From UHGV virus genome UHGV-0197997: a DNA stretch of 52,500 nt; one strand, given 5' to 3'. Both the position numbers and the translations under genes were made by a program. How positions within the stretch are numbered: position 1 is the stretch's first letter; every line of letters begins with the position of its first letter. Positions 28,039 to 52,500 of this stretch are shown piece by piece. The notes below the pieces were generated by a model, which was not told the DNA's origin, made no database searches, and was given only the letters and a program-made list of their open reading frames with translations. The DNA comes from a virus.

Positions 28039-28114
28039 TGGTGCTGGTTGACGGAATCGAACCACCGACATCCTACTTACAAGGCAGGTGCTCTACCTAC
28101 TGAGCTAAACCAGC
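28039..28114 (-). tRNA. tRNA-Thr (anticodon UGU), phage-encoded
   Basis: Hand-folded cloverleaf: acceptor GCTGGTT/AACCAGC, D-arm GCTC-AGTAGGTA-GAGC, anticodon loop CTTGTAA, T-loop TTCGATT, encoded CCA; T-stem needs two wobble pairs; 5' end overlaps methyltransferase stop by 10 nt. Confidence 0.55.
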
Positions 28115-47653: not shown

Positions 47654-48211
47654 ATGATCGACATCGAAACTATGGGAAATAAGCCTGCTGCGCCAATTGT
47701 CGCGATCGGCGCTGTGTTCTTCGACCCAAAAAGCGGTGAGCTGGGATCCGAGTTCTATGTGGCCGTCGACCTCGCTAGCGCCATGGATCAGGGGGCAACT
47801 CCTGACGGTGACACAATTCTCTGGTGGCTGAAGCAATCAGCTGAGGCCAGGGCCGCGATTTGTACCGGCGACACTCTTCACATCGATGAAGCACTTTATG
47901 AACTGAGTGACTTCATCAGTCGAAACTCTGAAAACCCGCGTTATCTGAAAGTCTGGGGCAACGGTGCCAACTTTGATAATGTCATTTTGCGAACTGCGTA
48001 TGAACGTGCGGGCCGTATTTGCCCTTGGCAGTTCTGGAATGATAGCGACGTGCGCACCATGGTGCTGCTTGGTCTCCAGTTGGGTTTCGATCCGAAGCGC
48101 GATATGCCGTTCGATGGTGTGGCCCACAATGCGCTGGCTGATGCTCGCCACCAGGTGAATTACGTGTCAGCGATTTGGCAGCGCCTACTGCCAACCAACA
48201 CCGAAGAATAA
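47654..48211 (+). CDS. 3'-5' exonuclease (DEDD-type)
   Basis: Exo I-like motif MIDIETMG near N-terminus and downstream acidic/His motifs (HNALADA). Confidence 0.6.
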   Translation: MIDIETMGNKPAAPIVAIGAVFFDPKSGELGSEFYVAVDLASAMDQGATPDGDTILWWLKQSAEARAAICTGDTLHIDEALYELSDFISRNSENPRYLKVWGNGANFDNVILRTAYERAGRICPWQFWNDSDVRTMVLLGLQLGFDPKRDMPFDGVAHNALADARHQVNYVSAIWQRLLPTNTEE

Positions 48212-48254
48212 ACCAAAACGCCCGGGTGCAGCCGGGCTGTATGGAGGACCTGTC

Positions 48255-48464
48255 ATGGCAAAACTTATGAAAGCGAGTCAATGGGGCAAACGCGAATTTG
48301 CTAAAGACTCTATTCCTGATAATCGAACGATTAAACGTTGGGTTGAAAATGGACTCCTTACGGGAAAGATCGTCGACGGATCCGTTTTCGTCTTCGAGTC
48401 TGAAAAATGGGGTGTCGACTCAATGGTTAACCACACAGTTCGACAGCTAATAAATGAAGGTTGA
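48255..48464 (+). CDS. xis: Excisionase-like small DNA-binding protein
   Basis: 69 aa basic protein immediately upstream of and overlapping integrase start; SD GGAGG. Confidence 0.5.
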   Translation: MAKLMKASQWGKREFAKDSIPDNRTIKRWVENGLLTGKIVDGSVFVFESEKWGVDSMVNHTVRQLINEG

Positions 48465-48466
48465 CC

Positions 48467-49645
48467 ATGGCAGCAAGACCAAGAAAAAGAGAATATCGTC
48501 ATCTTCCTGAATACCTGATCTTTGATAAGGATCGAGGTGTATACAAATTCACACTCATAACGGGAAAGAAAAAGAATCTTGGTAAAGACCGAGCTATGGC
48601 GATAGCTATAGCTCGCGAATATAACCTAAGAATGAGGCCCTTTAATGCACCATCGGTTGAATTATTAATCCGAGACTCCGGGGGGATCTCTGGGGAAGCT
48701 AAACCATTTGCTGAACATGTAGATCATATTATGGCCCGAGCGATTGAAAATGAGCGCCCATCTCAAAATACTCTTGATGACTGGAGTAACGACGCACTTC
48801 GGGTGAAAGAATTCTTCGTCGGTATGCCAGCCTGCGATATCGAGCTGGAGCACGTGAACGCCTATATAAACCATTATCATGCTGATGCTTCAGCAAACGT
48901 ACAAAACAGGAAGGTCAGCTTCCTTAAGAAACTATTCTCCTATGCTGTCGATGAATCATTGATGTTTGATAACCCTGCTACACGTAAAAAAATGCGAAGG
49001 ACTGAGGAGAAGAAACGGCAGCGCCTGTCACTCGATAACTTTAAAGCCATCAGACTCGCCGCCGAACCATGGCTGCGTACCGCTATGGATTTAGCATTGC
49101 AGACGACGCATGCACGCCTCGAGGTGTCACGAATCCGATATTCAATCAGTGAGCCAAAAGATGGAGTCTGCGGGTGCGTATGGCTGGCACAGCCGGAGAA
49201 TGGGATATATGGCACGCTATACATCCACCGCCAGAAAGTACAGAAGAAAGAGGCCTCGCATGTTGCAATCCCGATCGGGGAAGAATTGAAACGGATTATT
49301 GACGAAAGCCGCGATAACGTAGCTAGCCCGTTTGTCGTTCATCGAATTCCTGAGCGGCAGGTTAAACGCAGCAAAGAGGTTTCACACCCGACACAGGTTG
49401 CGCCGGATTATCTGAGCCGGTCCTTTTCCGCGGTGCGAGACAAGCTAGGTTTATGCGACAAACTGGCAATGGATGAAAGACCAACCTTTCACGAAATTCG
49501 AGCGTTGGCCGCTCACCTCTTCGATCAGCAGGGTATAGATCCACAAGGTCGAATGGCGCATAGCGATGCAAAGTCCACCAAGATTTATACTCAAAATCAT
49601 ATAGACTGGGTCGTCGTCCCTCATGGTGAAATCAAAGCCTGTTAG
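48467..49645 (+). CDS. int: Tyrosine integrase (lambda Int family)
   Basis: C-terminal catalytic region with HEIRALAAH ... KSTKIY(Tyr); N-terminal arm-binding-like domain; start at ATG after SD GAAGG. Confidence 0.85.
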   Translation: MAARPRKREYRHLPEYLIFDKDRGVYKFTLITGKKKNLGKDRAMAIAIAREYNLRMRPFNAPSVELLIRDSGGISGEAKPFAEHVDHIMARAIENERPSQNTLDDWSNDALRVKEFFVGMPACDIELEHVNAYINHYHADASANVQNRKVSFLKKLFSYAVDESLMFDNPATRKKMRRTEEKKRQRLSLDNFKAIRLAAEPWLRTAMDLALQTTHARLEVSRIRYSISEPKDGVCGCVWLAQPENGIYGTLYIHRQKVQKKEASHVAIPIGEELKRIIDESRDNVASPFVVHRIPERQVKRSKEVSHPTQVAPDYLSRSFSAVRDKLGLCDKLAMDERPTFHEIRALAAHLFDQQGIDPQGRMAHSDAKSTKIYTQNHIDWVVVPHGEIKAC

Positions 49646-49769
49646 CAGAAAAAAACATCTTAATTATTAGTACAGACAAGATAACAACTTTACAGCACAA
49701 AGTTAGATATAATTAGAGAGTCTACTTTGTGCCGTACTAGTATTACTCACAAAGAGAATAAAAAATCAA

Positions 49770-51083
49770 TTATTCAAATTCATCCAGCGTCCCGTTAACT
49801 TCTCCTTGTTCTACAGACCCCAGACCTAATCTACCAATTAATACAGGGCATTTCATTGTTATAGAAACACTCATATCTCTCCCAGGGACTCCAGCCTCTT
49901 TATAATGTTCTCCGCTTGCATTAGCAGAAAGCTCCGCATAAAATCCGCTATCAAATCTATAATTTTCTAGTGTGATATCCTCTACCGAATCAAAAATTGT
50001 ATCGGATATCGCAATCGCTCCTGATACTCCATCACCATCAAAAATATCGTTGGGGTTATTTTCAAAAGATTCTTTGCATATTTCTGCCAAGCTGTCTCCT
50101 GATATTAATCTAAAAGGAGTATCTTCAAATAACATATCAAGATGACTGAAAATGAAATCAGCTGTAAAATCTTCATTATCCGAATTTTCATCTAACACTA
50201 TCTGGTGCAGTTCCTTTGCAAGTTCTTCATCATAATATATATACTCCACCTTCCCTAAAGTTTCATTATTGAAATTTTTATCGTTAAGTAGTGAATCAAA
50301 ATCGGCATAACCAAACAGTACTGAAACAATTGAACTTAAGGATTTAATAGAAATATATACATCATCATCCTTAAAGCTATCTGCTACTATTTGCATAAGA
50401 AAAAACGCAGATGGGAATCTATTAGAGGCAAGAGTGGCTCTTACTTTAGCACCCTCACTCTCAAATCGCAGCATTTCTAATTCTGTTTTCTTCTCTTTTT
50501 TAACAAGTTCCAGCTTTGATATTCTTTCATTATTTTCTGCTTCTTGCGTTTTAAACAGCTGCTCTTGAGTTTTAAGTGTCGACTCTGCCTTTTTAGCCTC
50601 TAAACGAGAAGTTCTCAGTGTCATATGGTCTAATATCAAATTGCGTTTATCTATATCATGTTGGACTAATTGCTCCAAAAATTTTTTATTAGGATTAGCT
50701 TTAAGCTTTTCCATATTCAACTTTTTCTGATGATCAATTTTTATCAACTCTTCCGAAATTGCTTGTTTATGAAGCTTCTCCTTAGCCCAGTGTTGTAGAA
50801 ATTTAATAAATAATGAAAACCAAGGAAAAAGGAAAAGATAAAAAGATGCAATAAGTAATGGGATAACAAAAAGTTGATTCCAACCAATCAATGGAGTTTT
50901 TTCTAAATAATTAGTAAAACCACTTACCCGTTCAGCTACCTTACCTTCTCCCCAGAAAAGTAATGCAAGTTGATTCCAATTACATACTAACCAAGAACAT
51001 ATAAAAGTACCAACGAAGGGATCATTGATTCTTGTTCTTGCATTTCCTGCTATTGAAGAGAAGAATTCTTCTAAAAATTTCAT
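49770..51083 (-). CDS. AT-rich cargo protein: N-terminal membrane helices, central Lys/Glu-rich coiled coil, acidic C-terminal domain
   Basis: Located between int and attR core; visibly low GC relative to the phage backbone; hydrophobic segments LFVIPLLIASFYLFLFPWFSLFI; start taken at MKFLEEFF. Confidence 0.55.
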   Translation of the reverse strand: MKFLEEFFSSIAGNARTRINDPFVGTFICSWLVCNWNQLALLFWGEGKVAERVSGFTNYLEKTPLIGWNQLFVIPLLIASFYLFLFPWFSLFIKFLQHWAKEKLHKQAISEELIKIDHQKKLNMEKLKANPNKKFLEQLVQHDIDKRNLILDHMTLRTSRLEAKKAESTLKTQEQLFKTQEAENNERISKLELVKKEKKTELEMLRFESEGAKVRATLASNRFPSAFFLMQIVADSFKDDDVYISIKSLSSIVSVLFGYADFDSLLNDKNFNNETLGKVEYIYYDEELAKELHQIVLDENSDNEDFTADFIFSHLDMLFEDTPFRLISGDSLAEICKESFENNPNDIFDGDGVSGAIAISDTIFDSVEDITLENYRFDSGFYAELSANASGEHYKEAGVPGRDMSVSITMKCPVLIGRLGLGSVEQGEVNGTLDEFE

Positions 51084-51556
51084 TTTTCTATCGTTAACCA
51101 AGGCTAATTTACCATCAATTTAACAGCATATACTGTAAAACCGCAATAGAATAACCCGTTGTCTATACAACATACTTGTTGTCAATGGGGACTATACTGC
51201 TCCAATCCACAGAGTACTATCCGAAGACACAAGTGTTCAAAAACCTTTCTATTCAACTCATATGCTTTTAGTCAGTTCGAATGAGTTGTAGCTTGGAATG
51301 CTTCACTCGATCATGTTAGGCCGCTAGGAAATCGAGCAGAACAAACAATCAACAAAAATGTTTGTCCGATATAATCCACTGTGCTGAAAAGGTTATGACC
51401 AGACTTAATAAATTAATCCAAATGGCATGGGGAGAAACTACCCCCTAACTCATTGATGTATATAGAGCATATTTTGCTAAAAAAGCACTGTTTGTTTATA
51501 CATACAAACATCCCTCACCACCAGCAATGGCGCGGCTTACAGCGGTTTATAAGCGG

Positions 51557-51605
51557 CGACATGGGGTGTCGGGGGTCGGAGGTTCAAATCCTCTCGTGCC
51601 GACCA
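51557..51605 (+). other. attR-like core: 3' portion of tRNA-Pro(GGG) (anticodon loop to CCA), no 5' half
   Basis: CGACATGGGGTGTCGGGGGTCGGAGGTTCAAATCCTCTCGTGCCGACCA matches the recalled 3' part of enterobacterial proL; upstream sequence cannot form acceptor/D-arm. Confidence 0.6.
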
Positions 51606-51650
51606 AATCATTCACCGGTAAGTTATCTTAACAACCGGTAACCCTTAAGA

Positions 51651-51682
51651 ACCCGCATCCTCTCTGAGCCTGCGGGTTTTTT
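51651..51682 (+). terminator. Rho-independent terminator (native tRNA terminator)
   Basis: ACCCGCA ... TGCGGGT inverted repeat followed by TTTTTT. Confidence 0.6.
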
Positions 51683-51836
51683 AATGCCCGAATCACCCCG
51701 TCGACACGGTCACGGTCCGCGGTCGAATCCATCCCCGTTTCCGCACTGCTGATGAAGAAACTCCGACCTTACTGATTGTAAATCGAAGAATAGCTTCTAT
51801 TATTCGTCGTACTTGCCTGACACCGGAACAATTAAT

Positions 51837-52500
51837 ATGAGAGTTAATGGACTTACGAAGGGATTTTTTATCCTGATTTTGCTGATGGTCAGCCTCGCCT
51901 TTTTTAATGTTCTTTCCCCCTATTATTCAGCCATACTGTGGGCCGCGATTCTGTCGGTCATCTTCAACCCGGTGAAGAACAAGTTGCGTACTCGCCTCGG
52001 TGAGCGCAATGGCCTGGCCTCGTTGTTGACCGTCGTGATTATCTGCCTGATTGTTTTCACGCCGCTGGCGATCATCATTTCATCGCTGGCGATTGAGCTC
52101 AACCTGGTTTACACCCAGCTTCAGCATAACGACACCCAGTTTCCTGTGGTGGTGGCCAATCTGTTTGCCCATCTGCCTGAGTGGGCCAGAAGCTTTCTCT
52201 CCGAACATAACCTTGACAGCGCAGAGCAGATTCAGAAACAGCTCTCTGACGCCGCTCTGAAAGGCGGGCAATATCTGGCCGGCAGCGCGTTCCTGATTGG
52301 TAAAGGGACTTTCGGCTTTACCGTTAGCTTCGGCATCATGCTGTATCTGCTGTTTTTCCTGCTCAAAGATGGCCCCTATCTGGTCATGCTCATCCTTGAG
52401 TCCCTGCCGCTGTCTAACTACGTTAAGCAGCATCTGTTTGCCAAATTTGCCGCCGTATCACGGGCAACCGTAAAAGGTACCGCCGCCGTCGCCCTCGCCC
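51837..52500 (+). CDS. AI-2E family transporter-like membrane protein (host gene, 3'-truncated by window end)
   Basis: ATG at 51837; multi-pass hydrophobic protein open to the window end; first non-phage-like gene. Confidence 0.5.
   Translation, partial: MRVNGLTKGFFILILLMVSLAFFNVLSPYYSAILWAAILSVIFNPVKNKLRTRLGERNGLASLLTVVIICLIVFTPLAIIISSLAIELNLVYTQLQHNDTQFPVVVANLFAHLPEWARSFLSEHNLDSAEQIQKQLSDAALKGGQYLAGSAFLIGKGTFGFTVSFGIMLYLLFFLLKDGPYLVMLILESLPLSNYVKQHLFAKFAAVSRATVKGTAAVALA

Follow-up and report, generated by a model that had tools for sequence, protein, structure and literature searches.

A predicted membrane-anchored coiled-coil protein encoded by AT-rich cargo between the integrase and attR of a lambdoid prophage, a candidate defence or exclusion gene

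The virus genome UHGV-0197997, analysed here as a single window of 52,500 nt, is that of a lambdoid prophage integrating at a tRNA-Pro(GGG) gene, and in the slot between its integrase gene (int) and its right-hand attachment site (attR) it carries a horizontally acquired cargo gene. The 437-aa product is modelled as an inner-membrane-anchored protein, with a membrane module, a coiled-coil stalk and an acidic domain of two lobes, the last of which is an NTF2-like cone. Judged from its sequence and from the settings of its homologs, it is somewhat more probably than otherwise a single-gene defence or exclusion protein acting at the inner membrane. That the gene is variable mobile cargo is close to certain, and the physical association of the family with defence genes and with mobile-element cargo hotspots is strong and repeated. 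The host of the prophage is probably Klebsiella or Raoultella.

A preliminary description, made from the letters alone, had reported an open reading frame (ORF) on the strand opposite to int, lying between int and the attachment (att) core, and had taken its low GC content as a sign of separate acquisition; both statements hold. The cargo gene (minus strand) converges on int (plus strand), and has a GC content of 0.338, with 0.247 at third codon positions (GC3), compared with 0.505 for the backbone and a GC3 of 0.466 for int. The Escherichia coli F467 prophage at proL/yejO matches window positions 49300-49646 (the 3′ end of int) at 82% and positions 51418-51607 (the phage end and att core) at 89%. 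Because the homology stops at 49646 and resumes at 51418, and the two blocks are 13 bp apart in F467, where the slot is empty, the interval 49647-51417 is read as an insertion of 1,771 bp. Nothing convincing in the way of repeats or terminal inverted repeats was found at its borders. Separate acquisition is supported by the 34% GC of this 1.77-kb insertion together with the composition of the homologs elsewhere, which have a GC content of 0.31-0.47, at or below that of their flanks in 20/20 genomes checked (for example, 0.34 against 0.60).

The int gene is 78% identical at the nucleotide level to the integrases of E. coli prophages at proL/yejO, and the int and att coordinates and the annotations were compared in ten E. 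coli genomes with such an integrase (~78% identity). The preliminary description had proposed a comparison of this kind, and had reasoned that a syntenic core gene of the phage family would speak against its reading. Beside the empty slot of F467, four further slot states occur in E. coli, making five different cargo sets when that of the window is included (Table 1). The four alternative cargos are unrelated to each other and to the window protein, are AT-rich (0.34-0.43), and have no match in PADLOC or among PDB sequences. By eye the 256-aa protein of strain 100181 bears some resemblance to RelA/SpoT, on which no claim is based. The int-att interval of these related prophages is a variable cargo hotspot and not syntenic core. 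Presence or absence, replacement at the same att, and a GC content of 0.34 against 0.50 are what is expected of a variable cargo gene (moron), and the slot also supplies four more cargo sets as candidate accessory or defence genes. In Klebsiella aerogenes loci the gene, its upstream region (51084..51417), the att core and a further ~80 bp match the window (49720-51686) at 96% identity, while the int side is swapped from about position 49720, and in two of these loci an insertion sequence (Transposase_mut) lies beside the gene. The cargo therefore outlives its integrase, as these loci keep the gene and att although the int side has been replaced.

In the ORF list the gene spans 49770..51101 on the minus strand, 443 aa when counted from the upstream-most TTG at 51101. 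The 132 homologs are uniformly ~437 aa long and start with MK[FIL]L, which matches the ATG at 51083, and because all homolog N-termini have this form the true start is taken as ATG 51083 rather than TTG 51101. The conservation of a 1.3-kb open frame within 34% GC DNA in more than 130 homologs (38-97% identity) shows that the ORF is real, far beyond chance. For most homologs the coverage is 99-100%, and they come from Enterobacterales, Vibrionaceae, Pseudomonas, Shewanella, Aeromonas and marine Gammaproteobacteria; a protein cluster at 97% covers Klebsiella species and Raoultella.

The family is rare and its settings are diverse. Homologs occur in 22 of 185,579 species-representative genomes, almost all of them Gammaproteobacteria, a count that comes from a single search pattern and so is a lower bound. 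In Enterobacter the homolog lies at a lambdoid prophage end, with SRAP and umuDC on either side and tail-fibre genes close by, and in Rahnella at the end of a P2/186-like prophage that also carries a retron-like pair of reverse transcriptase and STM3845 genes. Homologs of E. bugandensis and of a Pseudomonas are found beside P2-like gpD-gpU-tape-measure genes, and that of P. nitroreducens terminally in a P4-like satellite. Two Vibrio, one of them V. cholerae, have the homolog (X) as cargo of a type I-F3 CRISPR-associated transposon (CAST), in the order HsdM-HsdS-GmrSD-GmrSD-X-TniQ-Cas8/5-Cas7-Cas6, and plasmid pLMG19650 of V. aerogenes carries the order hsdR-M-S-DUF262-DUF262/HNH-X, with X starting 19 nt past the preceding gene. 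In this plasmid (locus L071) hsdR is annotated upstream; among the Vibrio CAST loci (L019-L022 and L027), L027 has a cut HsdR-like gene further upstream. Thirteen viral contigs in IMG/VR carry a homolog, 10 of them with the gene no more than 3 kb from the contig end. The homolog of V. vulnificus (L010-L013) is divergent from a gene for an Rv2179c-like/RNase T-family exonuclease, the sole context unlike a mobile element or defence island.

In a survey of the three closest ORFs to either side of the gene at the 22 species loci, type I restriction-modification (RM) subunits, AbiH, DndB, the Hachiman protein HamB and P2 tail genes recurred. The homolog starts 6-27 nt after AbiH in Psychromonas, Colwellia and Marinomonas, after HamB in Aeromonas, and after HsdR in Marinomonas and Halopseudomonas, in each case on the same strand, and it follows DUF262/GmrSD genes at 19-66 nt, also on the same strand. 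AbiH has been reported to be Sir2-like (PMC13064643). The identities of AbiH and of the adjacent homolog run in parallel between loci (80/83%, 50/59% and 51/56%), a co-divergence that suggests a stable two-gene cassette in this sub-clade. At the two HsdR loci the RM genes are 82% identical and the homolog only 53%. No conserved small upstream partner gene was found, the upstream ORFs being unrelated, and elsewhere the homolog is a singleton without a conserved partner. The family travels as a single gene among cargo slots and has been added repeatedly at the 3′ end of defence operons. Prophage ends, the P4-like satellite, CAST and plasmid settings, and AbiH, Hachiman, type I RM and GmrSD neighbours lend contextual support to the defence or exclusion role that the preliminary description had suggested.

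That description had also recognised a hydrophobic N-terminus, a K/E-rich coiled coil and an acidic C-terminus, an architecture confirmed by hydropathy, structure prediction and charge. The AlphaFold2 (AF2) model of the whole protein (pLDDT 79.8) has a kinked helix at residues 22-44, a short helix at 49-62 and a continuous helix at 65-129, followed, after a break at P131/K133/F135, by a helix at 134-238 and then a globular domain. P22, G25, F27, W31, N35, W36 and L42 are invariant in the first segment, as is D21 just before it, and P75, P87 and W88 are invariant in the predicted transmembrane helix (65-95). The K/E-rich helical region covers about residues 96-238, roughly 140 residues, and its break is also invariant, lying within the conserved motif NPxKxFLEQ (residues 130-138). 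Because a Lys-rich stretch comes directly after the transmembrane helix, the positive-inside rule would place the stalk and the acidic C-terminal domain in the cytoplasm, and a GntR winged helix-turn-helix domain that forms an extra C-terminus in a Shewanella homolog is consistent with this.

When residues 210-437 were modelled alone the confidence was higher (pLDDT 88.8, pTM 0.80). The net charge over residues 216-437 (222 residues) is -31. The first subdomain (216-330) has the motifs RFPS, FGY and YxYYD, and no structural match was found for it, whereas the last ~100 residues of the model fit an NTF2-like/cystatin-like fold, with helices packed on a curved antiparallel sheet. The earlier remark that the C-terminal domain has no assignable motif is refined only at the level of the fold.

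Relatives of the N-terminal module extend well beyond the family. When 1.84 billion cluster representatives were searched exhaustively with HMMER, 66 representative clusters matched at E<1e-30, comprising the full-length family and fragments, and there were 2,524 matches at E<1e-3, most of those listed covering only residues ~1-210, in proteins of 220-340 aa with unrelated C-termini. As about 2,500 clusters share only this part, the membrane-plus-stalk module is a widespread unit with swappable C-termini. A profile of the C-terminal domain alone retrieved only fragments of the ~437-aa family, and by this evidence the putative acidic NTF2-like domain is specific to that family; a profile of the N-module relatives retrieved mainly the ~437-aa family. 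The window protein carries the residues typical of full-length members, namely D21, G25, W31, N35-W36, P75, P87-W88, F257-G258-Y259, G391, G401 and others.

Over residues ~10-217 of the 443-aa ORF the window protein matches PHROG profiles 4780, 13369 and 22645 (E 1.5e-15, 9.9e-11 and 7.9e-10), and it belongs with them in this part, the N-module columns R18, P22, G25, N35-W36, P75 and P87 being conserved; phrog_35327 also matches the N-terminal ~210 residues (E 0.0021). The four PHROGs resemble the window protein in their N-terminal ~210 residues, that is, in the membrane module and coiled coil, but are profiles of 275-350 positions and unknown function that have other C-termini and lack the acidic NTF2-like domain. 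Of 60 sequences scanned (the window protein and 59 N-module relatives), 59 matched phrog_4780. No real Pfam or PADLOC domain was found in the 59 relatives; matches to LmuB, JetC and golgin were rejected as compositional cross-hits of coiled coils, and the few PD-Lambda-1 matches accompany cross-hits to coiled coils of SMC type.

Searches with the window protein against known families were essentially empty. The Pfam scan at E<=1 returned just two sub-threshold chance matches (RAMPs and DUF3519), none of the 5,027 models of PADLOC-DB v2.0.0 matched at E<=1, and NCBIfam and PDB sequence searches returned nothing. The homology to a housekeeping or structural protein that the preliminary description had thought would count against a defence role did not appear in these searches. 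Neither the superinfection-exclusion families in Pfam (such as SieB) nor the Abi families (AbiH and others) matched. The structure and defence-catalogue comparisons proposed earlier gave no assignment: PADLOC had no match, and a Foldseek comparison of the full model with PDB had no significant hit, the top ones being SPLUNC1/BPI-like (E 0.017, TM<0.32). The C-terminal model had no matches in BFVD.

From the architecture and contexts a mechanism can be proposed for a single-gene protein acting at the inner membrane. The C-terminal domain would sense a phage-derived cue, the coiled coil would pass the signal to the conserved membrane module, and this module would then oligomerise and either compromise the membrane (abortive infection) or block genome entry. 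The division into a C-terminal sensor and an N-terminal membrane effector, which we infer, is suggested by the pairing of the N-module with differing C-termini across ~2,500 clusters. Since many copies are singletons, that of the window included, the homolog can apparently act alone; where it lies so close behind unrelated defence operons, it may serve in a back-up or accessory role beside them. A broader proposal is more doubtful: that the protein is the first to be recognised from a large, hitherto overlooked superfamily of immune proteins with a membrane anchor and a coiled coil (~2,500 clusters at 50% identity), with the N-module as effector and swappable C-terminal sensors. The ~437-aa branch would then work by itself (in prophages, satellites and islands) or as the last, back-up gene behind the DNA-targeting defences type I RM, GmrSD, Hachiman and Sir2-like AbiH, and would set off membrane-based abortive infection once the first lines have been bypassed.

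Several observations weigh against a defence or exclusion role. Guilt by association is only probabilistic. In the 24 V. vulnificus contigs read (the index lists 184 blocks) the homolog is at one chromosomal locus, where no mobile-element or known defence genes were called nearby. A tblastn search of 50,697 sequenced phage genomes gave no match. Conservation in the full-length family is even along its length (46-60% mean pairwise identity per region), with no hypervariable region such as a sensor might show.

The most credible alternative, although a rather unlikely one, is non-abortive superinfection exclusion, in which an inner-membrane protein halts or intercepts phage genomes as they arrive where they are injected, and the host survives, by a logic like that of Sie/Imm or of a SNIPE without its nuclease. 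A membrane anchor, a long stalk and a globular domain predicted to be cytoplasmic would suit such a role, as would the location at prophage ends; SNIPE is a precedent for a membrane-tethered protein that acts during injection (PMC13190303), and the C-terminal GntR domain of Shewanella homologs would put DNA binding at the membrane. However, no nuclease or known Sie domain was matched in Pfam or PADLOC, and the C-terminal domain is so acidic that it is unlikely itself to bind DNA. Many copies are in non-phage settings (CAST cargo, a plasmid and chromosomal defence operons), which argues against a phage-specific immunity, while the mechanism as such is still compatible with them.

It is less probable again that the protein is a non-autonomous subunit of the operon beside it (type I RM/GmrSD, Hachiman or AbiH), serving as tether, regulator or 'guard', with the prophage copy an orphan. 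The short same-strand gaps to AbiH, HamB, HsdR and DUF262/GmrSD genes, the co-divergence with AbiH across three genera, and the joint movement of the six genes of an RM-DUF262-X block between CAST elements and a plasmid are what such a subunit would show. The partners, however, come from at least four unrelated systems, most copies are singletons (window, Enterobacter, Rahnella, Pseudomonas, E. coli and V. vulnificus), and the differing identities of HsdM/R and homolog (82% against 53%) between two genomes indicate independent assortment.

We give little credence to a lysogenic-conversion or fitness factor unrelated to defence, for example a 'TolA-like' envelope or stress-related membrane protein. 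Databases label some homologs TolA by automatic annotation, some homologs have precomputed matches to PF28006 HpsJ (weak in the one case where the strength was shown), and the V. vulnificus site is constant in the contigs read. The homologs scanned with a Pfam copy that does not include PF28006 gave no hit to it. TolA does share an N-terminal transmembrane segment followed by a long K/E/A-rich helix. TolA identity was rejected for the window protein, which has neither TolA domain III nor a match in Pfam or NCBIfam, lies outside any tol-pal neighbourhood and is accessory in its distribution; the label is a low-complexity artefact. The extremely patchy distribution and the systematic link to defence genes and mobile-element cargo slots also speak against a fitness factor. 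Least plausible of all is an anti-defence or inter-element role with the acidic domain as a DNA mimic directed at host nucleases or DNA-binding defences: the charge of the domain and its carriage by prophages, a satellite, a transposon and a plasmid would fit, but the gene is co-oriented and nearly contiguous with type I RM, GmrSD and Hachiman operons that anti-restriction would sabotage, known DNA mimics have no such membrane anchor, and the structure searches revealed no similarity to Ocr/ArdA-type folds.

A single-gene defence or exclusion protein thus remains the preferred reading. If it protects against phages, it would represent a new defence family, absent from the PADLOC, Pfam and NCBIfam models, with an unusual design (membrane module, long stalk and acidic NTF2-like domain) whose membrane module is common to a larger set encoded by phages and other mobile genetic elements. 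Its placement as the last gene in unrelated defence operons makes layered or 'back-up' immunity testable. If it has no defence activity, it is an ordinary hypothetical moron.

Table 1. Coordinates of the features discussed. Positions are those of the 52,500 nt window unless a locus or an interval length is given; protein segments are predictions.
Feature	Position or interval	Strand	Basis or remarks
Cargo gene	49770..51083	(-)	437-aa product plus stop codon; ORF list, homolog starts
Residues 22-44, weaker hydrophobic segment, kinked helix	50952..51020	(-)	Alignment, AF2, hydropathy maximum 1.24
Residues 65-95, clear transmembrane helix	50799..50891	(-)	Kyte-Doolittle 1.4-2.2
Residues 96-215, K/E-rich coiled-coil stalk	50439..50798	(-)	AF2 helices 65-129 and 134-238
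Residues 216-330, first C-terminal subdomain, mainly helical, acidic	50094..50438	(-)	C-terminal model
Residues 331-437, NTF2/cystatin-like alpha+beta cone subdomain	49773..50093	(-)	Conserved loop ASGxH..PGR
Lambda-type tyrosine integrase gene	48461..49645	(+)	Pfam Arm-DNA-bind_1, SAM-like, Phage_integrase
AT-rich cargo segment, inserted	49647..51417		1,771 bp, GC 0.339; int stop codon to conserved prophage end
Inverted repeat, 13-nt arms, 20-nt loop	49691..49736		Between convergent int and cargo genes; repeat search
Non-coding upstream region of cargo gene, inside insertion	51084..51417	(-)	
Conserved prophage-end segment beside att core	51418..51562	(+)	89% identical to E. coli F467 prophage end
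att core	51563..51605	(+)	3′ 43 nt of tRNA-Pro(GGG); single occurrence in window
tRNA-like ARAGORN call, tRNA-Pro(GGG)	51528-51605		78 nt
Slot state of 50EVA, 3CM and LP50-1	2,311 bp		583-aa protein (annotation read: 50EVA)
Slot state of EC20-4B-2	1,013 bp		283-aa protein
Slot state of LD91-1 and MLI107	1,393 bp		289-aa protein (annotation read: LD91-1)
Slot state of 100181	1,281 bp		118-aa and 256-aa proteins
Alternative cargos, E. coli loci	L067 4707-6458; L068 3478-4329; L069 3593-4462; L070 3458-4585		
K. aerogenes loci	L001 8001-9369; L002/L003 1934-2576		
AbiH-homolog loci	L031 9041-11290; L036 9041-11281; L039 9036-11281		Flanking genes differ

The tRNA-like call at the end of the prophage has a canonical appearance only in its 3′ 43 nt, and by eye its 5′ part pairs with the acceptor 3′ strand. 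With Rfam at E<=0.1 no tRNA was found at 51528-51605, nor was anything else found across 48000-52500. We read 51563-51605 as the att core of a proL-integrating prophage and the remainder of the ARAGORN 'tRNA' as phage DNA; the whole has the appearance of an attR hybrid and not of a functional tRNA. A tRNA-like structure of this kind stays unannotated at E. coli prophage ends. Within the prophage body there is a tRNA-Thr(TGT) gene on the minus strand (28039-28114).

The promoter of the cargo gene presumably lies within its upstream region, where a TTGACA (51179-51184) and an extended -10-like sequence, TGGTAAATT (near 51107-51115), can be seen by eye; consensus scans for promoters and terminators upstream of the gene, on its strand, gave no matches. 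The inverted repeat between the convergent genes may be a bidirectional terminator, though it is without a T-run and a terminator consensus scan found none at this site.

Variant forms of the homologs were also seen. Those of 509-534 aa (P0074, P0081 and P0115; Shewanella and metagenomes) have an extra GntR-type winged-helix domain, which in P0074 is C-terminal (residues 469-516), and would be a membrane-tethered DNA-binding variant. The Serratia marcescens homolog is split into ORFs of 273 and 150 aa with adjacent locus tags (P0119 and P0122), apparently a frameshifted, decaying copy, and Kluyvera copies are truncated at the N-terminus (347-353 aa). An N-module member of 287 aa follows a DUF1778/GNAT toxin-antitoxin pair on Klebsiella plasmids (L072 4998-5861; IncFIB/IncFII typing in one examined).

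Among known proteins, the membrane-tethered NTF2-like/VirB8-like domains of TraM, DotI, VirB8 and the Tim44 C-terminal domain are 2-12% identical to the window domain; these serve as scaffolds in secretion or import machines, on the periplasmic or matrix side, whereas the window domain is predicted to be cytoplasmic and belongs to a singleton with no type IV secretion system context. SNIPE/PD-lambda-1 is a membrane-bound nuclease whose anchor and elongated middle part are followed by a cytoplasmic C-terminal domain, and it acts at the injection site (PMC13190303). It is likewise encoded by mobile elements and has the same single-protein layout as the window protein (N-terminal anchor, helical middle and C-terminal globular domain), the cytoplasmic side having been shown for SNIPE and being predicted here. 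Membership of this family was rejected, as Pfam and PADLOC detect neither DUF4041 nor a GIY-YIG (T5orf172) nuclease in the window protein, which has an acidic NTF2-like C-terminus in their place.

In its genomic setting the cargo is closest to the accessory defence cargo of P2 old/tin/fun, the P4 hotspots and the morons of lambda rexAB/sieB type, with which it shares a position at the prophage end next to int or att, AT-richness and variability. P2-like prophages and a P4-like satellite likewise carry members of the family at their ends. The proteins of P2 old/tin/fun, the P4 hotspots and lambda rexAB/sieB have no sequence or domain similarity to the window protein. No description of the ~437-aa family was found in the searchable literature (queried with PF28006, six accessions and keywords), nor was the family found in the DefensePredictor supplementary tables as far as these were covered, several being incomplete. 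Single-gene morons of defence type are well known from int-att hotspots; the protein family, its combination of folds and its recurrence as the 3′-most gene behind defence operons of various kinds seem not to have been described before.

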